NCBI GenBank assembly: GCA_963664015.2
Contig: CAXXLF010000002.1
Coordinates: forward strand, 800,001-864,000
Source: Candidatus Binatia bacterium
GTDB taxonomy: Bacteria > Desulfobacterota > Binatia > UBA9968 > CAXXLF01
Direction of reading: 5' to 3'
Length of the DNA: 64,000 nucleotides
The notes beneath the pieces are model-generated. The model was given only the letters and a program-made list of their open reading frames with translations. It was not told where the DNA came from and made no database searches. A program made the position numbers and the translations under genes. This document shows positions 5,789 to 16,712 of this stretch, piece after piece. Position 1 is the first letter of the stretch; each line of letters starts with the position of its first letter.

Positions 5789-5843
5789 GCTGGAGTCCCC
5801 CAAGTAAAAAGAATCTCTGTTACGGAATCCTGAAAAATCCCCA

Positions 5844-6039
5844 GGGCCACGCTTCTAAAATAATGTGGCCCCTTTTCTGCTGGCTCTCTTTCGTTGACGT
5901 CTTTAAAACTCTCCTGCTGAGGCCACCTCCGGGAATTTGTCAATCCGGATTCGCCCCGGAGCGGCTCTGGGATTGGCTTTGCTCGGTGTTTTGCTACCAG
6001 GACTCAATGAATGAGCTATTTAAACGCGGCTTGCGGGCC
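5844..6039 (+). repeat. Cassette junction J3 (hairpin + degenerate tRNA-Asn 3' core + WLSFVDVFKTLLLRP stub + conserved arm)
   Basis: GGGCCAC..GTGGCCC hairpin, TGGCTCTCT at 5881, and 5929-6039 aligns to 10851-10957. Confidence 0.8.
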
Positions 6040-6302
6040 GTTAGAAAGAAAACGGCGGCCCGTTGTGGACCGCCGCATGATGAACAACCAATATACGCAA
6101 CTAGGTACAACAACAGCTTGGATAGGTTCGCAGAGAATACTCTAAGTGGCTACCCAAGCGGTTTTTTGTCACACGTGTCACCTTTTCCGTATCCATCAGA
6201 GTCCTTCGGAGTTTGAAGACCAATAACGCGTAGAACGTTTTTCCCTTCGACTGGGAAGGCTTCCATGGTTTCAGCTTGAACGAAGATGGACGATTCTGCA
6301 AT

Positions 6303-6543
6303 TCAGAAGGCCGTGAGACCGAGCCAGCCTCCCCAAGCGATGAGTAGTAGGCCAGTTCCTCTTCCGAACGCGACACCTGCGGGCATCATTTTTTCTGCGA
6401 GAACGAACAACGCGAGGCCAATGATCCAAATCAGGTTCATTACGCCCCCATAGAACATGAGGGCCATTAGAAACCAACAACAGCCCAAGCAGAATACGCC
6501 GTGCTCAATGCCCATCCTGAACGCCTCCCCGACACCAGGGCGC
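6303..6543 (-). pseudogene. C-terminal fragment of a DUF2182 metal-binding membrane protein
   Basis: RPGVGEAFRMGIEHGVFCLGCCWFLMALMFYGGVMNL..I...LAEK family motif; N-terminal part absent. Confidence 0.75.
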
Positions 6544-6559
6544 CTGGTCCGGAATCTAG

Positions 6560-7081
6560 CCCAATGAAATTCTATTACGACAACCCCAAACTCGGCCCGG
6601 ATTTCTTAAAGCGCCTCTTTGGCGAAACGGATATGACCTTTTACCGGGATTTTCGTAGCGGGACGGACTGGCTGTCCCGAGGTAGGATTGCCGTATGCTT
6701 TTTGCAGTGGTATAAGCAGAGCCAGGAGCCAGGGGCTTCCAGTGGACCAGTTTGGAACCATGAAAGAAGGTGCGGCCCTTGTTTCCTTTCATGGTAGTTT
6801 AGCCCTCGTAAATAAAGCTCCCCACCCAAACGCGGCCAAGGTCTTCATCAACTGTTTTCTCTCCCGGGAGGGGGCAGATTGCCCTGCAGAAGGCGTTAGC
6901 TAATTTAGGGGATGACCCTCCGAATTCCCTACGCATCGAAATCCCAAAGGACTCTGGTCCACTCATAAGGCGCAGGATGAAGCGGGGAACGTATATAGAT
7001 CTGGAATCCGGCGGAGGAGTCGATAACAAGCCTCCCTTGAGGATCTTAAATGATATCCTGGTAAAGATGAATAAGAGATAA
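6560..7081 (+). pseudogene. C-terminal half of an ABC solute-binding protein, frameshifted
   Basis: Pieces in different frames: FYYDNPKLGPDFLKRLF...TDWLSRG, KAPHPNAAKVFINCFLSREG, NSLRIEIPKD; no N-terminus. Confidence 0.75.
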
Positions 7082-7208
7082 CGGTCCGGTCGAATTTGTC
7101 AGCCACGTATCAACGGAGATGGAGTAACACCGGTCGGCGACAAACATCCTAAGGGTGGACAAGCGAGACCTCGGGTAATCCCGATACCTCGAAGTGGAGG
7201 GGAAGCAT

Positions 7209-8381
7209 ATGGAGCGTAAAAATTCCGAAGGAACCCAGGCACAGTTTAAATACCAACAGTTCATAGAAGGCGAGGGCATACCCATTCATAGGGGGATCTC
7301 GGGGGTCGATGACGTTACCGCACTTCCGCGCCGACCCTGGGCTCGAACAGGCGGCCTGGGAACCTTCATCGAACTGACGAGCACCTTCCAATCGGAGCGC
7401 GGCATGTTCGTGTGTGAGATTCCCGGCGGCAAAACACTGGAAGTTCAGCACCACCTTTACGAACAATTGACGCTCATCCTGGAGGGTCGAGGAGCCACCG
7501 AGATCTGGCAAGAGAATGGGCCCAAGCAAATGTTCGAGTGGGGGCCAGGAAGCCTTTTCGCTCCACCGAAAAACACCTACTACCGGCTACACAACGGTGG
7601 ACCGGAACCCGTGGTTTTTTTCGCGATCACCACCGCACCGAGGATCATAAACGGTTTAAACGAGGTCGATTTCGTCTTCAACTGCAAGCATAACTTCACA
7701 GATCTTTACAATGGCCAGGAGGATTATTTCAACCAGACGCAAGATCGCGTTACAGGAGGACGTTACAATACCACCACCTGGTACACGAATTTCATTAGTG
7801 ATGTGAATCGGGAGAACGTAGACGCCCACGAGCAAAAGGTGGCAGGCGGTCAGCTTACAGGCTACCGGATGGCCGGACAGTTCCCAACGGGCCATATTTC
7901 CGAATGGCCGATGGGCAGATACCACAAGGCCCATTACCACCGCCCCGGCGCCGTCCTCGTGGGCCTTAAAGGTAAAGGCTACGTCAACCTGTGGCCCAAG
8001 GAGTTGGGAATCCACCCATGGCAGGACGGACACGGGGACAAGGTCGTCCTGGTCCAATGGGGAGCGAACAGCATTTACAGCCCTCCGGACGGCTGGTTCC
8101 ACCAGCACATGAGCACGGGCAAGGTGCCCGCGCGCCATGTGGCATGCTACGGCGGGACCAACCCGCTTGCATGGACTCGGGATCCAGATGGAAGCAACGT
8201 GATGATTCCTGTGCGCGAGGGAGGGCAGCTTATTGACTATGAAGACGAGGATCCGGAGGTCCGGCGGTACTTTACCGATGCCAACGGGAGAGAAGGCGTG
8301 AAATGCGCGATGCCACAGGTCAAGTTCCGTACCGATCCACTTCCTCCTGTAGCCCTCGCCAGACTCGGGATTCGGGGGTAG
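7209..8381 (+). CDS. Bicupin protein (gentisate 1,2-dioxygenase-like superfamily, substrate unknown)
   Basis: Two cupin motifs: HHLYE...G.G.T and YHKAHYH.PG...PPDGWFHQH. Confidence 0.75.
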   Translation: MERKNSEGTQAQFKYQQFIEGEGIPIHRGISGVDDVTALPRRPWARTGGLGTFIELTSTFQSERGMFVCEIPGGKTLEVQHHLYEQLTLILEGRGATEIWQENGPKQMFEWGPGSLFAPPKNTYYRLHNGGPEPVVFFAITTAPRIINGLNEVDFVFNCKHNFTDLYNGQEDYFNQTQDRVTGGRYNTTTWYTNFISDVNRENVDAHEQKVAGGQLTGYRMAGQFPTGHISEWPMGRYHKAHYHRPGAVLVGLKGKGYVNLWPKELGIHPWQDGHGDKVVLVQWGANSIYSPPDGWFHQHMSTGKVPARHVACYGGTNPLAWTRDPDGSNVMIPVREGGQLIDYEDEDPEVRRYFTDANGREGVKCAMPQVKFRTDPLPPVALARLGIRG

Positions 8382-8567
8382 GTTCTCCGCTCACATGGAT
8401 AATTTCTTGGACTTCCTGTTGACCCTATCAAGGGAAACCACATGGGCGCGATCTTAGGAATCGGATGCAACCACACGCTGCAACAGGCCTCGGGCATGGA
8501 TCGTTCGAGATATTTGCTTATCCGTCCTCGTCTTTAGAAATAACTCCGCCCGAATGCCTCGTTTTTA

Positions 8568-9710
8568 TCACAATGGGGTTCTGGACCCGGGGAAGGTGAT
8601 AATTTGGTTTTTTTCCGGATCGCGGACAAGAGCCATAGGCTCGCCTCCTCGCTCGACAATCTCGATCTGCTCGCGAAGGAGCTTTCGATACATCGTGATT
8701 CCCTCGTCCGTTGCACCTAGATTCTCCTTGCTCCGATCGAAGATACTTCCCTGAGTTTCCCAGGCCATGAAGTCCTGAGCGTGGAACAAGGTCATATCGT
8801 ACTCGCCTTCCGGAGTCCTCAGGTCCCAACGGATGACACGCGGCTCTTCGGGTTGTTCCACAACCCGACCGTCTTTGGAGGGTTTGAACACCATGAGATA
8901 GATCTGGGTATGGGTGTCGTCAATCGGTATACGCCAGTGCAGTGCCTCGGAAGGTCCCTTTGGAATCCGGAGGATATTAGGGAAAACAAGAGGTGGACGT
9001 ATTTCAATCTCCGGCTTGTCTCCGCCATACCTGCAGCTTTTCGTGATCCCCCATTCACAGTGTTCCCAGTCGTATTCCTCTATGGGCCGGTAGTAATACT
9101 CTCCTCCACTAAGACCTTTTTCGTGAAAGGTATGGCCGTGAAGGTAGTAAGTATGAATCGTGTCCACCGAATTCTCCATGGCCTGCAGCCAGTTGCAGTT
9201 GAGCACCGGGTCCACTTCGATCAAACGCGTTCCATCTGTCCTGGCGATCACATCCCAACGGGGTAGCAGCGGTTTTTTCTCAGGGGGCCCCATGTAGACA
9301 AAGATCATTCCGCACAGGCTCTCCAACGGATAGCTTGGATGACATATCTTGTGTTTGAATTCCGGATTGTTCTCGAAGGGCTGCTCGATACATTTCCCTT
9401 GAGCATCGTATTTCCAACCATGGTAAGGACATCGAATCCCGTCATCTTCCACGAAACCATAGTATAAGGATGTCCCCCTGTGAGAGCAGTGTTCGGCAAC
9501 GCAACCGTACTGAACCGCCTTCTCACCATTCTCTGTCGGGAGGCGAAAGACGACCAGTTCTTCACCCATGATCTGAACACGTTTCTTGGGGTTCTCCTTG
9601 GTAAGATCACTGACCAGGCAGATCGGATGCCAATAACGGCGCAATAATCTACCGCTAGGTGTATCAGGACCAATGCGGGTCAACATTTCATTCACTTCTT
9701 GATTAAGCAT
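8568..9710 (-). CDS. Rieske non-heme iron oxygenase alpha subunit (phthalate 4,5-dioxygenase/LigX-like)
   Basis: CSHRG...CPYHGW Rieske ligands, ENSVDTIHTYYLH iron ligands, QD.MAWETQG. Confidence 0.88.
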   Translation of the reverse strand: MLNQEVNEMLTRIGPDTPSGRLLRRYWHPICLVSDLTKENPKKRVQIMGEELVVFRLPTENGEKAVQYGCVAEHCSHRGTSLYYGFVEDDGIRCPYHGWKYDAQGKCIEQPFENNPEFKHKICHPSYPLESLCGMIFVYMGPPEKKPLLPRWDVIARTDGTRLIEVDPVLNCNWLQAMENSVDTIHTYYLHGHTFHEKGLSGGEYYYRPIEEYDWEHCEWGITKSCRYGGDKPEIEIRPPLVFPNILRIPKGPSEALHWRIPIDDTHTQIYLMVFKPSKDGRVVEQPEEPRVIRWDLRTPEGEYDMTLFHAQDFMAWETQGSIFDRSKENLGATDEGITMYRKLLREQIEIVERGGEPMALVRDPEKNQIITFPGSRTPL

Positions 9711-10032
9711 GCCTCACCCTCCTCTCGTGCAAAACGCTTCTCTCATCACGTTTATATAAAAGACGCGATATTATACCAGCAGTAGAACAATGCCATAAAC
9801 CGGCGGGGATTTTCCCACTGTGCCAAGTGTTTGTCAAGCATCCCATTGATTGGGTGTGAGGCTGTGAACATTTGATAAATGCAACGACTCTAAAGTATCA
9901 GAGGAGACCATAGGCTGAAGGCCGCGTGTCCATTTTCCCAGCGCGCTTCCTCATGTCATCAGTCGAGGAAATCAAGGACAGCCATATATAGAGATAAGGG
10001 CAACTACCGTCAGTAGGCTTAGGCTTTTCAAT

Positions 10033-10362
10033 CTAAACAAAATCGACTTCGTTTTCAGCCAGTGTTTTATCTCGCCTCAATTTACGAAACTTTGCATCAC
10101 TCTGGCGCCATTCGTCATCACTCGCACGTAGCTCGGCCAACGCTTCATCGGGCTGGCGCTTCGTGCCACCATCATTCGGGCGCTCTTTACCATCATTCGG
10201 ACGTACCTCAGTCGACACCTTATCGAGCTGGCGCTTCGTGTTGGACTTACTCGCGGTGCTCTGGGTAGTCGGGGCACTCGGGGAGGTCGCGCTGGTAGAG
10301 CAAGCGACAGCCCCGATTAATAGGCCGAAAAGCACTAAAACATCAAGATTACGCATGATCAC
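10033..10362 (-). CDS. Putative lipoprotein with short internal repeats, possibly truncated
   Basis: Signal peptide with AVAC lipobox, Ser/Thr-rich linker, RPNDG twice and TKRQ(L/P)D twice. Confidence 0.45.
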   Translation of the reverse strand: MIMRNLDVLVLFGLLIGAVACSTSATSPSAPTTQSTASKSNTKRQLDKVSTEVRPNDGKERPNDGGTKRQPDEALAELRASDDEWRQSDAKFRKLRRDKTLAENEVDFV

Positions 10363-10680
10363 TCAGGTCCAATGATAGATAGACCCTAAGGAGAAATCAA
10401 TTGTGATCCATGCCCTACCTTGTAAGTAAACGATATCGGAACCGAGGGTTTTATGTCAATCCGAGTTGGGATTTCGTGAAACCTGAACAATCCCCTGTAA
10501 GACAATAGGTTATAGGTAACAAGAGGGGATTCCATTTGGCCTAAAAGACGGAGAATTGACATGTTTTTGATGGGATTACTGGTAGTGTTGAGCATGTTCT
10601 TCGCCCCGGAGGCAATCCGTAAGAATCACCATCAAAACTTTCACAATTACAGTAAATGTGGATGAAATACTGCGGCAGAT

Positions 10681-10957
10681 AAAAGGCCGTGCTTCAAAAG
10701 AAACACGGCCTTTTTAGAACTGGCTCCCCTTCGTGGACGCATTTCGAACCCTATTGCTCAGGCCAACGCCTGAGATAGAAGAGCTCTTCCGCGATCTTAG
10801 AAAATCAGGTTAGATAGTTCCAAACGAACAGTAAGGGCGGCCCAGGAGGGTCGGGAAATTGTTAAATCTAGTTAGACCGGAGCTGCTCTGGGCTTAAATT
10901 TGCTCGCTATTGGACCCCAGGATCAATTGTCCCGTTAATTAAATGCGTCTTACGGCC
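10681..10957 (+). repeat. Cassette junction J2 (best-preserved copy)
   Basis: AAAAGGCCGTG..CACGGCCTTTTT hairpin, TGGCTCCCC at 10721, stub WLPFVDAFRTLLLRPTPEIEELFRDLRKSG* (10721-10813), arm 10851-10957. Confidence 0.85.
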
Positions 10958-11010
10958 TAGCGACAATCCGTGAATCTCACCGAGATAGACAACAACCACA
11001 TCTTCAGGCG

Positions 11011-12762
11011 CTAATCCCCGGCCCTTTCAATTCTTTCTGGAGGGGGTTTGAAAACGTCATATCGGCCGAGGATCTCCACTCTCATGCTAGGGTTGTGAAA
11101 ATTTGAATCCAGCTCAGCCTCATTTTTGATGGTAAGCAGATGCTCAATCTTGGCCTCCATATCTTTACCCGAGGCCATATTCGCTTCGCCTAAGTCTTCG
11201 TCAACATCATAGGAACGGACCCAATCGAAACTGTAATAGGCGTCCACAAATTGAGGGTCAAGATCCATGGCTCTCGTGGCAAGGGTAATGCCTTCTCTGA
11301 ACTTCCCGCCCCAATTGGCCAGCATGGCCAGGTTCATAAGGGCATCAGCGTGGGCTTCGCGATCCACCTGTGACATCTTGATTTTCTCGATCGACTCCAT
11401 TCCTCCTTCTGTCATTGGACGAGGCGCACGAACCAGTCCGCTTTTGATAATTTCATCCATTATTTCAAGTGCCAGTATCTTGTGGCCTTCTATGGTCGGA
11501 TGGACATGGTCCAAAAACCACTCCTCCCCTGTTATACCTTCGGGGGACCTCTCCGTAATGATCGAATCAAAATCGACAACTGGGACATTCATCTCATGGC
11601 CAATATCATTGACCGAAGTACCCAAGGCAGATATCGCCCGTAATGGACATACATCCTCATCTATGGCTTTTCGGTAAGCCGCCTTTGCTTCTCCATATCT
11701 TCCCAAAGAAAAGAGGATGTCCCCTTTTAATGCGAAGGTATGAGCATACCGAGGGTCTAATATTTCAGCGTTCAATATATGAATAAGCGCTTCTTCAAAC
11801 TCTTTTTGCCGGACCAATTCCAGGGCCCATGCATAGTTTCGTATCCACTCCTCTAAAGCTGGCTTTCCTAAGTCATCTCTATGTTGTGATTTAAAGGGCG
11901 CTTCATGCCGCATTTTTGAAGCCGGGGTCACCAGAATAATCTTGGAATCAACCGATCGGGCAAGCCTGATGATTCTTGTCAGGTTAAATCTAAAATGAGC
12001 GACGACGTCCTTTTTGTGCTCCTCATCTCTTGTATAGTCGTGAGGTCCAACAGATTGGTCCAGGATCGGATTGACCTCTTTGGAAAGCTTGTGAACATAC
12101 CCTACTTTACCCTTTTCACTTGACCAATACCCGATAATATTATTCAAAAGGGAATAGATCCGTAACTTGGAGGCGAGGGTTCCAAGATCTCGTAGAACCA
12201 TTGGTAGCCCAAGTATTTTTGAATAGGTCCTTCGTTCCAGGAATTCATTATGCCCCGTGTAGACAACCACCAGGTCGGGTTCATATTGAATAAGCTCGTC
12301 CATGAGTAGCACAATCCGGTAGCTGGCATAACTGACGCCACCGGCGTTGATGACCTCCCATTGATGCTCCCGGTCTACGTAATTGAGAAAATCTTCAAGC
12401 CAGCTACAAAAAGAGGTACGGGGCGAGTACGGTCTTCCATAGATGGTGAATCCGCCTACACAAAAGACACGCAATGTATTTGCGGATTTCATCTTTGTGA
12501 ATGACTCATTAGGAAACAACTCAAGCTTTTTAGGGTGAGTAATCATAACGGGAATGTTCCCCCCGTTCTTGATGAAGACGGAGTCGGTGAAGAGCCTCTC
12601 CTGGGAGCTAAAACCGACAAACGGGTCCTGACTGCTTTCCCCTTTGGGAATATCAAAAATTGTCAAAACACCTTCCACGAGAAGAAAAAACAGCGAACAG
12701 GTAATGGCGCTAAAAGCAATGAGTTTGGGTTTTGATAGAGGATAGGGGTTTGTTGAATTCAT
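11011..12762 (-). CDS. Membrane-anchored SGNH/GDSL hydrolase-like protein with TPR repeats (SxtL-like position)
   Basis: N-terminal TM helix, CVGGFTIYG (block I), NAGG.SYAS, GHNE, DHVHP and TPR-like helices; start moved to the ATG at 12762 with an AAGGA RBS. Confidence 0.75.
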   Translation of the reverse strand: MNSTNPYPLSKPKLIAFSAITCSLFFLLVEGVLTIFDIPKGESSQDPFVGFSSQERLFTDSVFIKNGGNIPVMITHPKKLELFPNESFTKMKSANTLRVFCVGGFTIYGRPYSPRTSFCSWLEDFLNYVDREHQWEVINAGGVSYASYRIVLLMDELIQYEPDLVVVYTGHNEFLERRTYSKILGLPMVLRDLGTLASKLRIYSLLNNIIGYWSSEKGKVGYVHKLSKEVNPILDQSVGPHDYTRDEEHKKDVVAHFRFNLTRIIRLARSVDSKIILVTPASKMRHEAPFKSQHRDDLGKPALEEWIRNYAWALELVRQKEFEEALIHILNAEILDPRYAHTFALKGDILFSLGRYGEAKAAYRKAIDEDVCPLRAISALGTSVNDIGHEMNVPVVDFDSIITERSPEGITGEEWFLDHVHPTIEGHKILALEIMDEIIKSGLVRAPRPMTEGGMESIEKIKMSQVDREAHADALMNLAMLANWGGKFREGITLATRAMDLDPQFVDAYYSFDWVRSYDVDEDLGEANMASGKDMEAKIEHLLTIKNEAELDSNFHNPSMRVEILGRYDVFKPPPERIERAGD

Positions 12763-12791
12763 TGACTGAATCCTTGAAAGTAGTCGTTCAA

Positions 12792-12971
12792 TTAAAAAAG
12801 CGTATAGATAAATGGGGCTACAGCCGAACTTTGGGCGAAAATGACCAGCCCAGCGAAAAGCAAAAGGATCAAAATCATTGGCGTCAACCACCACCACTTG
12901 TGCTGCCAAAAGAACATAAGAAGTTCGCCCATGATACCCATGCGACTAGCTAAACTTTCAACAAACCGCAT
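12792..12971 (-). CDS. DUF5989 / SxtK-like small membrane protein, 59 aa (not in the ORF track)
   Basis: MRFVESLASRMGIMGELLMFFWQHKWWWLTPMILILLLFAGLVIFAQSSAVAPFIYTLF*, ending in the family APFIYTLF motif; GAGGAGG RBS. Confidence 0.88.
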   Translation of the reverse strand: MRFVESLASRMGIMGELLMFFWQHKWWWLTPMILILLLFAGLVIFAQSSAVAPFIYTLF

Positions 12972-12984
12972 GTACGTTTCCTCC

Positions 12985-14775
12985 TCAACTTAAGCCTTGA
13001 GGCTTTTCAATCACATATTCCCCCAGAGCTAGAATGTCCATTCCACTTTGGCTGAACGTCCGAAAAGCTTCCTGGGGCGTGTTGACAATCGGCTCGCCCT
13101 TCAGGTTGAAAGAGGTGTTTAGCACTATTGGAACGCCGGTAGCTTGTCCAAAGTTCTCGATCAGCCGGTAAAATTTCGGGTTCACTTCTTTCTGAACTGT
13201 CTGAAGCCTTCCTGTGCCATCCACGTGTGTGATGGCAGGGATGGCCTCCCGCTTTCCTTCCCTTACGTCCACCACATAGAGCATGAAGCGAGCTGGATAG
13301 TGCCTTGGCGCGTCGGGCAGGACAAAGTACTCCTCTGCACACTCAGCCAATACAGAGGGAGCAAAAGGACGGAATGGCTCGCGGAACTTGATCTTGACGT
13401 TAACGATATCCTTCATATCGGCACGCCTCGGATCGGCCAGAATGCTCCGATTCCCCAGCGCTCGAGGGCCCCATTCAAACCGATCCTGGAACCACCCTAC
13501 GACCTTTCCGGATTGAAGTTCTCCAACAATCCGCTCTATCAACTTCTCCTCACTGTCGAACCGCCGATAACGGATACCCTTCTCTTTCAGGAACTTTTCG
13601 ATCTCGCCAGGACCGTGCTCCTCTCCCCAGTAGGCATGCGACATAACGAACTTACGCGGCTTACCCAGAATGGCATGATGAGCATAGAGAGCTGCTCCGA
13701 TAGCCCCACCTCCGTCACCGGCTGAGAGCTGGATGTAGATTTGCTCGAAGGGGGTCTCTTCAAGAATTCGCGCGTTGGCTACGCTATTCAGAGCTACTCC
13801 ACCAGCCATACAAAGCCTCTTCACGCCAGTCTCCTCGTACACATTTCGTGCCATCCTGAGCAGAACATCCTCTGTCACAGCCTGAATACTTGCGGCAACA
13901 TCCGCATAATATTGATTTAACTTCCCCAGCTCTTCATAGTTCCCCGGCTTTTCGCCGAAGTACGAAGGATAGCCACCCGCCGGCGTGAAAAAAGGGGCTT
14001 TGGGATCTCTTGAGGGACCAAAAAGGGCCTCAAATTTTCCATTAAACGTATTCTCTGTGGAGTAATGAAAGGAAAAATAGTCCATGTTGATTTCAAAGCT
14101 GCCGTCACATGCCACCCGGATGAGTTTGTAAATTTTGTCTTGATATCTCGGCGTGCCAAAAGGGGCCATCCCCATAACCTTATATTCCCCTTCGTTTACC
14201 TCAAATCCCAGAAATGCCGTAAACGCGCTATAGAGAAGCCCTAGAGAATCGGGAAAACGAATCTCTTTGAGCAGTTTTAAATCCGTACCCTTCCCTAGTC
14301 CAAGGCTAGCCGTTGTCCACTCTCCTACTCCATCCACTGTCAGTATGGCTGCGTCCTCAAAGGGGGAACAGAAAAAAGAGCTGGCCGCGTGGGAGAGGTG
14401 GTGTTCGCTGAAGAGAATCCTGGACGGTGGCACTCTGAGCCGTGTTCGAATGAGATGCTTGATCCAGAGCTTATCTCCTAGCCAGCTGGTCATCGCCTGT
14501 CTGAAAAGGCGATGGGATCGGGGAAAGGTTTGCATGCTGGTTAAGATGAGTCGTTCAAACTTAATAAAAAGCTTCTCGAAAAAGGCTACATAGTCCAGTT
14601 CTTCCGCCCGGATTCCACCAACTCCTAGACAGAAATCAATGGCATGCTGAGGGAACTCATAGTCGTGCTTCTTGCGTGTGAACCGCTCCTCCTCGGCTGC
14701 AGCAATCAGCTGCCCGTCGCGTAGTAACGCGGCTGCGGCATCGTGGAAGTAACAGGAGATGCCTAAGATATCCAT
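12985..14775 (-). CDS. O-carbamoyltransferase (NodU/CmcH/SxtI family)
   Basis: ILGISCYFHDAAA, EEERFTR.KH, EHHLSHAAS, GEYKVMG.AP, GPRALGNRS, KFRE.FRPFAP, NTSFN. Confidence 0.92.
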   Translation of the reverse strand: MDILGISCYFHDAAAALLRDGQLIAAAEEERFTRKKHDYEFPQHAIDFCLGVGGIRAEELDYVAFFEKLFIKFERLILTSMQTFPRSHRLFRQAMTSWLGDKLWIKHLIRTRLRVPPSRILFSEHHLSHAASSFFCSPFEDAAILTVDGVGEWTTASLGLGKGTDLKLLKEIRFPDSLGLLYSAFTAFLGFEVNEGEYKVMGMAPFGTPRYQDKIYKLIRVACDGSFEINMDYFSFHYSTENTFNGKFEALFGPSRDPKAPFFTPAGGYPSYFGEKPGNYEELGKLNQYYADVAASIQAVTEDVLLRMARNVYEETGVKRLCMAGGVALNSVANARILEETPFEQIYIQLSAGDGGGAIGAALYAHHAILGKPRKFVMSHAYWGEEHGPGEIEKFLKEKGIRYRRFDSEEKLIERIVGELQSGKVVGWFQDRFEWGPRALGNRSILADPRRADMKDIVNVKIKFREPFRPFAPSVLAECAEEYFVLPDAPRHYPARFMLYVVDVREGKREAIPAITHVDGTGRLQTVQKEVNPKFYRLIENFGQATGVPIVLNTSFNLKGEPIVNTPQEAFRTFSQSGMDILALGEYVIEKPQGLS

Positions 14776-15036
14776 CAGAATTGCCTACCAGCGCGCTCTT
14801 CCGGGGTATCCTTGTTTTCCCCCCTGACCCGCCACCCCCCTTGGGCTACCATTCTTGATGGCTAGAGGGTCACAAAGCCAGCGTACTGCTAGGGCGAATG
14901 GCGCAAAAACAACGTAGTAGAAAAAGCTTAAAAGCGCTTGCGCCTGGAGGTCGCCTATCTTCTTCCCGACTCGCCTCCACCACTGCCAGAAGCTCCCCAC
15001 CGCCCCGGCTATGCTACTCCCTTCTCGTTCAGCCAT
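14774..15036 (-). pseudogene. SxtJ-like membrane protein with a +1 frameshift in a G6 run
   Basis: WQWW...IGDLQ...LLSFFYY...PFAL...DPL; removing one G at 14835-14840 restores ...GWRVRGENKDTPEERAGRQF*, whose stop overlaps the next ATG. Confidence 0.65.
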
Positions 15037-15423
15037 GAATGATTTCCATTTGTTCAGAAGTGAAAATAATAAGGAGCTCTTTTTGAGGCAAGGCCAACAA
15101 GAACCCAAGAATTCTCCTAACGCCACTTTTCATAACTATTAAGCCGGAACACCCCTGGCAAAAAATCGCCAAAGCTGTTGGGTTTCTTTTACTCTCTCAC
15201 GGAAGCCGATTTCTGGTCCCCTTGTTTAGTTTTCACTCTTCACTAGAAACTCTATAATAAATCGGCTGAGGTTACTATGAGACCCCCAATTATCACACTG
15301 GAAAGCGTTTGTCGATTTTCCCAAGGCTTCAATAACACTTCAATTATGCCCTTCAACGAGCAGACTCCATTCACCGGTTTCTTCCCTAGGGATTAGCTAG
15401 CTTGCTCGGCTTCACAATGGCAG

Positions 15424-15712
15424 GTGGAATGGTGGGACACCGAAAAAAAGGCCGCGCTTCCAAAGAAACGCAGCCTTCAATAACTGGCTTCCCTTTGTGG
15501 ACGGTTTTAGAACTCTGTGTACCGTACCACCAGTCGGGATTGCAGAGCGTCTCGGAGAGCTTGGACAAGCCGGTCTTACATGCGGAGCAGACTGATCGAT
15601 CCGAAGGCTAACGATTAAAAGAGACTGCAGCCTATTAAAAACCAATACGAAATTGTAAGTCCACCTGGATCCAAATCCAACCGTAACCCCTTCAACGAGC
15701 CGCTTGAGAGCT
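15424..15712 (+). repeat. Cassette junction J1
   Basis: AAAAAAAGGCCGCG..CGCAGCCTT hairpin, TGGCTTCCC at 15485, stub WLPFVDGFRTLCTVPPVGIAERL...* (15485-15595), patchy match to the arm. Confidence 0.8.
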
Positions 15713-15868
15713 TTCGCCCTTCTTAGAAGGCGACTACAGCTAAAATAGATTTTCCTATTAAATTCGTTCTCATCGGTGGGGCTCCGGCCCTTCTGAGCGA
15801 CACTGTAAAACACGTAACCACAGATATCGATATTGTGAATTCTCGACTTTCCCTACAATGTGGACTAC

Positions 15869-15890
15869 CATAGCTATTAGCATAGCTATG
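15869..15890. promoter_or_regulatory. Putative toxin-antitoxin autoregulation operator
   Basis: Tandem CATAGCTAT(T/G) palindromes just after a TACAAT -10 box and before the RHH antitoxin gene. Confidence 0.5.
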
Positions 15891-15905
15891 CCGAAAGGTG
15901 AAATT

Positions 15906-16139
15906 ATGAAGACGGTGCAAATGACGCTGGACGAGGATCTCGTTAAAGCAGTGGACAGGGCTGCTAAACGACTTGGCACCACTCGGTCGGGCTTCGCGCG
16001 GGACGCGCTCCGCTCGGCTCTTAAGCACGTGCACATTGCGGAATTGGAACGAAAACATCGCGAAGGGTACCAGCGCAAGCCAGTTAAGCCAGGGGAGTTC
16101 AGCAACTGGGAATTGGAACAGGCCTGGGCTGAGGAGTGA
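15906..16139 (+). CDS. Ribbon-helix-helix (CopG-like) antitoxin
   Basis: MKTVQMTLDEDLVKAVDRAAKRLGTTRSGFARDAL RHH pattern; stop overlaps the toxin start (GTGA). Confidence 0.85.
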   Translation: MKTVQMTLDEDLVKAVDRAAKRLGTTRSGFARDALRSALKHVHIAELERKHREGYQRKPVKPGEFSNWELEQAWAEE

Positions 16140-16447
16140 AGAGAGGTGAGGTTAGGTGGTACAAGGTTTCCCGGCCTGACAAGCAGAGACCGATTCTGAT
16201 CCTCACGAGGGACTCCGCTCTCGAATACCTTGGGGAGGTTACTGTAGCTCCTATCACGTCAACAATCCGAGATATTCCCTCGGAAGTCTTGTTGAGCAAA
16301 GCAGATGGCATGCCTCGGGACTGCGCTGTGAACCTTGATCACATCCAGACCGTCTCAAAGACTAAAATTAGTTCCTTGATTACAACACTCAGTCCTAGGA
16401 AGATGCTTGAGCTGCGCTCAGCCCTCACCTTTGCCCTGGGCTTTTAG
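16136..16447 (+). CDS. mazF: PemK/MazF family endoribonuclease toxin
   Basis: MKRGEV.W...DK.RP.LILTR, VAPITSTIR, VNLDHIQTV. Confidence 0.88.
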   Translation: MKRGEVRWYKVSRPDKQRPILILTRDSALEYLGEVTVAPITSTIRDIPSEVLLSKADGMPRDCAVNLDHIQTVSKTKISSLITTLSPRKMLELRSALTFALGF

Positions 16448-16593
16448 GAATCCATTCCTCGCTTGCAGAGTTGGAATAACTGATTGCTCAGCAATCGGTG
16501 CCAGGCTTCACCATCGGGAAAGTGTTAGCGAGCACGCCCGCTATGGCTCGCCCTCTCGGCGGTCTCGGAGGAGGGGATAGAATACTACGACAC

Positions 16594-16629
16594 AAAAAAG
16601 GGCCGCGCCTCTTAAGAAACGCGGCCCTT
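16594..16629 (-). terminator. tRNA-Asn terminator hairpin (junction J0)
   Basis: Minus strand AAGGGCCGCG..CGCGGCCCTTTTTT directly after the CCA end. Confidence 0.8.
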
Positions 16630-16636
16630 CCAACAC

Positions 16637-16712
16637 TGGCTCCCCGGGAGGGACTCGAACCCCCGACAAAGTGGTTAACAGCCACCTGCTCTACCAGCTG
16701 AGCTACCGGGGA
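16637..16712 (-). tRNA. tRNA-Asn (GTT)
   Basis: TCCCCGGTAGCTCAGCTGGTAGAGCAGGTGGCTGTTAACCACTTTGTCGGGGGTTCGAGTCCCTCCCGGGGAGCCA; 76 nt cloverleaf with encoded CCA. Confidence 0.97.

Follow-up and report, generated by a model that had tools for sequence, protein, structure and literature searches.

The DNA analysed here is a 64-kb window from Candidatus Binatia bacterium (contig CAXXLF010000002.1, positions 800,001-864,000), an organism whose genome measures 3.5 Mb, and all coordinates given below are those of this window. The window contains a single tRNA gene, which is also the only tRNA-Asn among the 50 tRNA genes that ARAGORN finds in the genome. The hairpin and core that mark the end of this tRNA-Asn gene recur three times at lower coordinates, where the TGG of the core lies at 5881, 10721 and 15485 (Table 1). 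In these copies, designated A, B and C, the core leads into a stretch reading WLPFVDxFRTL.. instead of into a tRNA. The accessory segments that lie between the junctions carry distinct cargo according to Pfam: one has genes for a cupin and a Rieske oxygenase, another has a GDSL/TPR gene, a carbamoyltransferase gene and an ORF of 113 aa, and another has an unknown ORF together with a MazF-like toxin gene. The G+C content is 0.45-0.49 at 9-13 kb and at 15-16 kb, compared with 0.52-0.57 in the flanks.

Table 1. Features of the tRNA-Asn end and of its three copies in the window.
Feature	Position	Strand	Description and evidence
Hairpin left of tail A	5843..5872	-	RNAfold -20.0 kcal/mol, z -2.5; alignment
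Tail A	5881..5940	+	First ~20 codons of a B-type tail
Stack of three accessory segments separating the junctions	5941..16595	.	Pfam on ORFs; G+C
Terminator-type hairpin (A tract, U tract) left of tail B	10681..10714	-	RNAfold -24.9 kcal/mol, z -6.1
Core CTGGCTCCCC	10720..10729	.	Common with the tRNA-Asn 3' end, antisense of GGGGAGCCAG; alignment of four units
Tail B	10721..10813	+	30 codons and stop; very probably the end of a large serine recombinase (LSR) gene and the P' arm of attP
Element-side arm past the stop codon of tail B	10814..10928	+	Conserved in the G004:C7 unit and in copy A
Hairpin and U tract left of tail C	15447..15478	-	Terminator scan; RNAfold -26.7 kcal/mol, z -5.3
Tail C	15485..15595	+	36 codons and stop; LC..P.PE type, also in family f2 genomes
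Terminator hairpin directly after tRNA-Asn	16596..16631	-	RNAfold -28.6 kcal/mol, z -5.1; model E 0.013
tRNA-Asn(GTT)	16637..16712	-	Probable integration target; ARAGORN

The frame of tail B that begins at 10721 translates to WLPFVDAFRTLLLRPTPEIEELFRDLRKSG and closes with a TAG codon at 10811-10813. Tail C, from 15485, gives WLPFVDGFRTLCTVPPVGIAERLGELGQAGLTCGAD and a stop, and tail A, from 5881, gives WLSFVDVFKTLLLRPPPGI; a deletion of ~85 nt follows position 5940 in copy A, after which homology to the arm resumes up to ~6016. When the 3' half of the tRNA-Asn gene is read in antisense (16637-16678, plus strand), it yields WLPGRDSNPRQSG and a stop. These four readings are as quoted in the first-pass annotation of this DNA, which had proposed that the junctions preserve a conserved coding stub. 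A DNA profile of A, B and C, searched against the whole genome, recovers only these three copies (E 7e-43 to 3e-32) plus, at E 1e-6, the end of tRNA-Asn and its terminator, and the next-best match in the genome has an E value of 0.44. Profiles were required, since copies A and C are missed by a generic repeat finder and by BLAST against the bacterium's own genome. Beyond this genome, unit B aligns at 74% with the G004:C7 unit over 212 nt from the core (blastn). The three tails of the window are relics only, and no intact member of the element is present there.

To survey the window's order, 123 genomes were searched with a covariance model of the stubs, followed by a profile of their protein reading. 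Thirteen stubs were found in 10 of these genomes at E values up to 1.4e-6, all of them within short open frames of 31-146 aa and each with a hairpin before it; five weaker matches (E 0.03-0.09) are not stub-like. Codon statistics were computed from 12 copies in 10 genomes, with copy A omitted because of its internal deletion. Across 12 x 27 codons, frame +1 is free of stops, compared with 3 to 17 stops in each of the other five frames, and its pN/pS of 0.53 is the lowest among the six. Mean column entropy is 0.84, 0.63 and 1.27 at codon positions 1, 2 and 3 (permutation p = 1e-4), and the bias is present within codons 4-11 (p = 0.001) and also within codons 12-27 (p = 0.003), which lie beyond the half-site presumed to bind DNA, all of these p-values overstating independence because the copies are related and those of L048 and L052 are near-identical. 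Since the bias persists in codons 12-27, a constraint from DNA binding alone, which the first-pass annotation had named as the explanation to be expected if codon positions did not differ, is insufficient to account for conservation of the tail. The pattern argues for purifying selection beyond the half-site codons, and hence the tail would probably matter to the free-form enzyme.

Where a stop is seen, it falls at codons 31-38, with the exceptions of the G004:C4 copy (codon 49) and of copy A, whose frame runs past its deletion. In every copy the frame is either closed a few codons before the W or continuous through the hairpin, and the stub is therefore not a standalone gene. We also considered a minus-strand gene that ends at the hairpin and rejected it. 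The wobble-coincident minus-strand frame has 3 stops and a pN/pS of 0.67, which is worse than frame +1, and the ORF lists hold no long frame that would back such a gene.

The likely parent of the tail emerged from a protein search with a profile of the 13 tails, which returned nine proteins of 85 aa or more. In seven of them (P0002-4 and P0006-9), the sequence ..FSNCLWKDGxLIPxYRKPFDxLAxTN..KATSRVKSGLSEI, which represents the C-terminal region of an LSR, runs into the tail without interruption. The tail of P0006 is 90% identical to tail B over 30 aa and has the LSR C-terminal region upstream, and P0004 (222 aa) shows a long helical region further upstream. The remaining two are of another kind: P0005 is a hairpin read-through into the stub, and P0010 is without the LSR C-terminal region. 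Circular forms and tandem arrays are both conceivable sources of the metagenome proteins that combine body and tail. The same combination occurs at one genomic locus, L070, where the gene has a frame change and 10 masked bases.

An alignment of these body-and-tail proteins, scanned over genome contigs with one genome per species, identified 76 loci. Among the best 20 of the 76, which were scanned for tRNAs, nine hold a tRNA-Asn(GTT), and at eight of the nine the recombinase frame enters the tRNA in antisense and ends in ..SGLSEIWLPGRDSNPRPIG and a stop or in a close variant (WLPG(R/T/P)DSN..G and a stop), where the anticodon loop in antisense provides the TAA stop. The remaining locus of the nine, L071, is decayed. 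Intact LSR frames of 480-545 aa are present at five of these eight loci. Pfam was run on seven sequences, and L057, L058 and L062 (the class of 531-545 aa) as well as L060, L068 and L073 carry Resolvase, Recombinase and Zn_ribbon_recom domains; no Pfam family was matched on P0004. Relatives also have distant PDB matches to the TP901-1 and A118 integrases, and within the best 20 of the 76 loci some read antisense into tRNA-Gln, tRNA-Arg and tRNA-Glu. In three Hyphococcus-type genomes, an LSR frame ends at tRNA-Asn in ..FEK followed by WLPELDSNQ and a stop; each frame spans 500 residues or more and is still uninterrupted where the retrieved flank ends. A scan of viral contigs yielded just one decayed relative, and there is thus no sign that these elements are phages.

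Within the window's own order, G119 has a 536-aa LSR (100% match) at tRNA-Asn and a tail on another contig, and G082 has a 545-aa LSR frame at tRNA-Asn, likewise with a tail on another contig. Only C-terminal fragments of LSR genes are present in G093 and G078, and no LSR gene was found in G004. Neither a tRNA nor an integrase lies within 1.5-20 kb of the tails in relatives, where the partner junctions are on other contigs or 80-220 kb off. In the window itself, Pfam detects no recombinase among the 18 ORFs at positions 1-23 kb, and an LSR protein profile run on six frames of positions 1-30000 matches only the tRNA-antisense reading. A tblastn search of the genome with LSR C-terminal proteins matches only the three tails, and the single PF07508 match in the genome is a 126-aa fragment far outside the window.

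Taken together, these comparisons make it very probable that positions 10721-10813 encode the orphaned C-terminal tail of an LSR whose attP lies within its own reading frame. The first-pass annotation had arrived at a similar picture and had suggested a protein search with the tail, in which hits were to be recombinase C-termini beside tRNA-Asn. The search bears this out, with an LSR region in seven proteins and an antisense reading into tRNA-Asn at eight of nine loci. Its placement of an att site inside the 3' end of an integrase gene agrees with the fusion of the tail to the LSR C-terminal region and with the antisense course of intact relatives into tRNA-Asn. The two alternative C-termini that it envisaged are both found in relatives, as ..WLPGRDSNPR..G and a stop at eight loci and as WLPFV.. 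after the LSR C-terminal region in seven proteins and L070. It had further noted that many LSRs end in tRNA-antisense WLPxxDSN tails, which holds for this clade, and it had regarded the recombinase of this locus as lost, in keeping with the finding of neither the gene nor a fragment of its body in the window or genome.

The organization of the att site can be read from alignment of tails with tRNA junctions. TGGCT is invariant in all tails and positions from nt 6 onward vary, which would place the crossover in or just before the antisense of the CCA/discriminator, and we infer that it falls within C-TGGCT. Around the crossover, the tail junctions and tRNA junctions share only ~10 nt, (C)TGGCTCCCC. 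The body of the tRNA is never altered by insertion, and the trailer alone is exchanged. A second relationship becomes apparent further to the right. The hexamer TCGAAC of the tRNA T-loop starts at nt 19 in all 11 tRNA-side junctions, and in tails it starts at nt 24, exactly so in 7 of the 13 tails of this order (4 more have a one-mismatch variant there) and in all 11 Hyphococcus-type tails; in tail B it occupies nt 24-29. GGAC occupies nt 15 on the tRNA side, and most tails have this tetramer or a close variant of it at that place too. In canonical systems, attP and attB half-sites differ by 5 bp in where the zinc-ribbon-domain (ZD) motif lies (Rutherford et al. 2013, PMC3783163). The right half-sites described here conform to this 5-bp rule, with TCGAAC lying 5 bp further from the centre in tails than in the tRNA. 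Judging from these motifs, the first ten tail codons (W L P F V D x F R T) appear to serve as the P' half-site as well.

On the left side of each junction stands a hairpin, and the one beside the tRNA belongs to one family with those left of A, B and C. A simple terminator scan reports hairpin C alone, and folding reports all four. Hairpin B shows compensatory pairs among copies (RNAalifold). The hairpins can also be read as protein. As the first-pass annotation had stated, the reading KGRAS(K/stop)ET(R/Q)P occurs in three places: KGRASKETRPF at B and KGRAS-stop-ETRPF at the tRNA are both in frame with the W, and KGRASKETQP at C is one base out of frame with its stub. Outside Hyphococcus, nine of nine attL junctions have a hairpin of 13-17 bp with a U-rich tract, situated 7 nt past the tRNA end and within codons of the LSR. 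This embedded hairpin lies in the last ~15 codons of the gene and on the opposite strand, its U tract being supplied by the lysine codons of ..QKRKA.., and the four hairpins of the window are of equal geometry. It appears, then, that an element may bring a new terminator for the tRNA whose own terminator it displaces.

These features can be combined in a mechanism. Elements of this clade would insert at the extreme 3' end (CCA/discriminator) of tRNA-Asn(GTT), where strand exchange in C-TGGCT would cut the LSR gene and leave its body beside the tRNA. The integrated LSR would then end with ~13 codons taken in antisense from the tRNA, with a stop that is the antisense of the anticodon loop, and the natural tail (WLPFVDxFRTL...) would stay at the far end of the element until excision rejoined body and tail. 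The hairpin and U tract in the last ~15 codons of the gene body would serve as the new tRNA terminator after insertion. Under this mechanism, three serial tails would represent at least three successive insertions, a tandem accretion after which the recombinase genes were lost. The tails A, B and C are on the side and strand that insertion of an LSR element predicts. Such tails are widespread, with 50 of the 76 loci, from several phyla, holding at least one tail of ~30 codons and several of the 76 holding 2-4 tails within a few kb. The three Hyphococcus-type genomes each have 3-7 orphan tails, which mostly agree with the prediction in side and strand and lie 80-220 kb downstream of a tRNA-Asn occupied by an LSR.

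Canonical attP x attB recombination cannot by itself line up three tails one after another; under the published rules, each insertion by a serine integrase consumes attB (PMC3783163). Each core in the window is preceded by a hairpin and no gene body, and the tRNA junction resembles an intact attB. On balance, we regard it as most likely that this array grew by tandem accretion and later lost its recombinase genes. It is possible that the hairpins are either the native terminator or the retained 3' ends of earlier recombinase genes. If they derive from recombinases, the units could be attP-like and the tRNA-side unit an attL remnant, with new insertions entering beside the tRNA as older genes decayed. 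We find it distinctly less likely that the units are classical attR sites, each made of the native tRNA-Asn terminator, the core and an element tail, so that the hairpin at the tRNA was never disturbed. Consistent with such an origin, all hairpins of host family f1 belong to one family, including those at the intact tRNA-Asn of G004 and of G002, a genome in which no tails were found and yet whose tRNA-Asn has the f1-family hairpin. Likewise, the left part in family f2 is clearly host DNA, in that the hairpin side of the tail adjoins a conserved host gene (for a MoCo-binding dehydrogenase; L049, L051, L054, L055) and the tail side differs in each genome, as expected of a simple right-hand junction. 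The type of left part also tracks the host family and not the tail type, the ~75-nt left parts of Hyphococcus-type arrays are unlike the 3' end of the resident LSR, and an nhmmer profile of the LSR 3' arm finds no significant match to the hairpins in the window's genome (E about 2). However, a classical attR offers no mechanism for three tails plus an intact target. The array would have to arise otherwise, for example by import of stacked islands through homologous recombination, or by loss of the recombinase-side junction through gene conversion from an empty allele. Moreover, the hairpin shape is rare: a strict pattern occurs at 2 loci in the genome, and a model trained exclusively on hairpins embedded in LSR genes from other lineages gives 7 matches at 5 distinct loci in 3.5 Mb, of which the tRNA-side, B and C hairpins are three (E 0.02 genome-wide for hairpin B). 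The window's hairpins equal the LSR-embedded ones in the spacing from stem to TGG (10-11 nt) and match them in reading. The left parts in G001 and G004, for example, read RA(T/A)PxKK(R/H)GPFE(N/S) up to the W and are equal in length to that of P0006, KATLRSRSGLSEN before the W, which the G001 left part, RATPPKKRGPFEN before the W, resembles. In addition, native tRNA-Asn flanks look different in f3 genomes and in tail-free f2 genomes.

The uniformity of the units, each with hairpin, core, tail and an arm of ~120 nt, and the unrelated cargo between them raise another scenario, wherein the units are complete attP-like sites of recombinase-less cassettes, or satellites, that are moved in trans by a helper LSR and form an integron-like stack. 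Arrays of 2-7 tails at 2-5 kb spacing in other phyla would fit such cassettes, as would the 15 of 31 Dehalococcoides ssrA islands that have no integration module, for which cis mobilization was proposed (PMC3146451). We nevertheless judge this origin improbable, given that there is no helper LSR in the window's genome, that tail A is damaged and that no circular cassette was observed. In this scenario the left halves of the partner sites would be equivalent, so that the target would be regenerated beside the tRNA at each insertion; hybrid sites are inert without a directionality factor under the published rules for serine integrases (PMC3783163). Very improbable is a noncoding origin of the stub, either as a decayed tRNA-Asn pseudogene or tRNA-like RNA on the minus strand, or as a cis-regulatory leader with a terminator before minus-strand genes. 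MAFFT does align the units with the whole tRNA-Asn, with which they have TGGCTCCCC, GGAC and TCGAAC in common, and a hairpin is followed by a minus-strand gene at several loci. The shifted half-site motif, however, accounts for the tRNA similarity, and the period-3 substitution, the stop-free plus frame and the stop conserved at codons 31-38 all speak for coding, as does the continuity of the tail with recombinase genes in other DNA. A tRNA pseudogene or structured RNA was rejected, because ARAGORN finds no tRNA in the units and RNAalifold supports no structure beyond the terminator.

AlphaFold2 on P0004 (7 sequences) gives a mean pLDDT of 54.5, with values below 50 and a helical tendency in the tail, too low in confidence to be usable for it. 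By analogy with Mx8, and as the first-pass annotation had suggested for directionality and stability, loss of the tail on integration might change the directionality, activity or stability of the enzyme, which we put forward tentatively and regard as less than probable. More speculative still is the notion that this clade runs a self-regenerating, integron-like stacking at tRNA ends, in which the target survives insertions, the tail swap sets activity or stability and an antisense terminator protects. The last codons of the recombinase would imitate the tRNA terminator, which could make the left halves of the partner sites equivalent. Recombination of a site ordered hairpin-core-tail into one ordered hairpin-core-tRNA would then recreate both kinds of site, and recombinase-less cargo units mobilised in trans could pile up. 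Exchange of the conserved 30-residue tail for tRNA-antisense residues might give the enzyme one level of activity or stability in the free element and another in the integrated one. The antisense terminator might keep the tRNA functional and also protect the recombinase gene against read-through.

Large DNA is inserted chiefly with serine integrases, whose directionality control is under active study. Three unusual traits distinguish this clade: its own gene is rewritten by integration, an attP half-site copies the universal tRNA T-loop motif at +5, and a putative terminator for the target tRNA is brought along. In combination, these traits provide a natural test for the half-site model and may amount to a built-in sensor of state. 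By recognizing the T-loop, the clade may be able to switch tRNA targets, as is suggested by the readers of tRNA-Gln, tRNA-Arg and tRNA-Glu. Furthermore, these 'mini-ORFs' of ~30 codons mark old insertion joints and delimit accessory segments by tRNA genes even where there is no integrase. For the window itself the meaning is modest, comprising three relics, accessory metabolic genes and a MazF-type module.

Full-text searches, which covered the main texts of open-access papers, returned no serine recombinase with a conserved tail exchanged at a tRNA gene, the nearest cases being the Dehalococcoides islands (PMC3146451) and the work on Mx8. Within the same scope they returned no conserved and selected free-form tail, no T-loop motif at a +5 offset and no antisense terminator within recombinase codons. 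In the ssrA islands of Dehalococcoides, a CcrB-like serine recombinase of ~540 aa, DsiB, is located at the island edge beside a tRNA-like gene, and downstream of the target the islands follow one another in tandem between repeats of the target's 3' end (McMurdie et al. 2011, PMC3146451). The arrangement is alike here, in that a serine recombinase gene runs over the att repeat at its 3' end and a tandem stack lies downstream of the target. The ssrA islands have an integration module of six genes that includes a small serine recombinase, DsiA, and about half of the islands are without it (PMC3146451). Their target is the tmRNA, with insertion mapped to the T-loop and a repeat of 20 bp (PMC3146451), whereas the target here is the CCA end of tRNA-Asn. 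Moreover, the overlapped part of DsiB is divergent and was judged unlikely to be functional by its authors (PMC3146451), whereas the free-form tail described here is conserved as protein across phyla. The embedded terminator and the 5-bp motif shift are present here and are not described for DsiB islands in the available passages of that paper, the likeness to DsiB being one of description.

For Mx8 (IntP/IntX; Tojo 1996, Magrini 1999), attP lies within the integrase coding sequence, and integration supplies a new 3' end and therefore another C-terminus, which reportedly alters enzyme behaviour and does not inactivate it (PMC6070905, PMC4383910). As with Mx8, the integrated and free forms of the recombinase considered here differ in their C-terminus. 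Mx8 Int is, however, a tyrosine recombinase, and the two differ in chemistry, site architecture and control of directionality. Pfam finds serine-recombinase domains only in the LSR relatives and no tyrosine recombinase catalytic domain, and the clade is therefore an analogue and not a member of the Mx8/SSV1 group. SSV1-type archaeal integrases are tyrosine recombinases that target tRNA genes and have attP in the gene, which is disrupted by a split near its N-terminal part. In contrast, the last ~30 residues alone are exchanged in the elements described here. The SSV1-type integrases are also mentioned as extending across attP (PMC4383910).

With canonical LSRs (A118/LI, phiC31, Bxb1, TP901-1), the clade shares the Resolvase, Recombinase and zinc ribbon domains, short sites, a small core and the 5-bp ZD shift (PMC3783163). 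In those systems attP is outside the integrase gene, and the targets are protein genes or intergenic DNA (PMC3783163), whereas here attP is inside the gene, a tRNA end is the target and tails occur in series. According to the Islander paper of 2014, tRNA genes were not known as targets of serine recombinases. Prochlorococcus tycheposons are cargo-carrying integrative elements at tRNA genes that form stacked islands, and 27 of 937 tRNA-linked elements in Prochlorococcus have a large serine recombinase instead of a tyrosine recombinase (Hackl et al., 10.1101/2020.12.28.424599). Tycheposons are likened to the present elements by description, the available passages of that preprint making no statement on attP inside the gene or on a tail swap. 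Rewriting of an integrase C-terminus by integration is established for Mx8 and implied for DsiB, and the tRNA-Asn family, which is represented in the Binatia-type order, in Hyphococcus and in others, is a further family of a partly known design.

At nine loci the serine recombinase genes carry, on the strand opposite their last ~15 codons, a strong hairpin with a U tract, and at the tRNA this recombinase-embedded hairpin starts 7 nt beyond the tRNA end. Judged by sequence, such an arrangement would represent a terminator built into the coding sequence. Orphan tails, which are recombinase gene ends left at the far end of an element, occur in arrays. Hyphococcus-type genomes contain three to seven of them each, most on the same strand, over 45-142 kb, and in one locus (L094) four lie inside 6.5 kb. 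A conserved sequence of ~75 nt, starting GTTCGA, precedes the tail in most of the array units inspected, and an intact recombinase is located at tRNA-Asn, 80-123 kb beyond the arrays.

Locations of the features discussed in the text
Feature	Location	Details
Antisense hairpin + U tract	L057, L058, L059, L060, L061, L062, L066, L072, L148	within the 62 nt 5' of core (sequence common to tails and tRNA-Asn 3' end)
Orphan tail arrays	G123:C1:2216709-2261599; G125:C1:481630-623857; L094 1444-7976	
Group I intron in tRNA-Asn(GTT)	L134 1589-1855 (G004:C7)	RF00028, 95 bits
Group I intron in tRNA-Asn(GTT)	L135 785-1105 (G003:C370)	RF00028, 78.5 bits
MazF/PemK-like toxin gene	window 16136-16447	Pfam E 8e-17; segment nearest tRNA (feature span 15858-16447)
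Two tandem 71-nt copies	window 10095-10240	76% identical, spacing 75
GDSL/TPR copies of G004	L045 8054-9838; L047 8732-9847	

The tRNA-Asn(GTT) gene itself is interrupted in two genomes of the same family, where a group I intron (Rfam RF00028) occupies the anticodon loop. ARAGORN reported no tRNA at either locus, because the halves are 265 nt (L134) and 561 nt (L135) apart. The junction sequence seen at these two loci is also present in L067 and in a second locus of genome G002. At ~300-450 of L135, a hairpin belonging to the family seen at the window's junctions stands with the initial 20 nt of the tRNA-Asn 3' end, beyond which the sequence is unrelated; this arrangement represents a third kind of junction, and it probably derives from another element class. 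Two Mut7-C copies occur in G002 (L146 and L145; G002:C1 ~2.748 Mb and 4.331 Mb), one adjoining an intact tRNA-Asn and the other a 41-nt tRNA-Asn 3' fragment with a conserved aminopeptidase and ABC-transporter flank. These two contexts suggest a rearrangement at the tRNA-Asn locus of this genome.

Among the accessory segments of the window, the toxin gene is directly preceded by a 93-aa ORF that could encode its antitoxin. The tandem 71-nt copies fall within a 109-aa ORF (10033-10362, - strand) for which no Pfam match was found. The GDSL/TPR gene (11011-12909) shares 83% identity with two copies in genome G004. Each of those flanks a tail on the side where the hairpin is, whereas the window gene is on the tail side of orphan tail B, upstream of tail C, which means that the two genomes differ in segment order.

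Related recombinases read antisense into tRNA-Gln, tRNA-Arg and tRNA-Glu (loci L068, L073, L087), with the tRNA-Gln-side protein ending in ..NWLPD*. Hence, the recombinase clade would seem to have switched tRNA targets.
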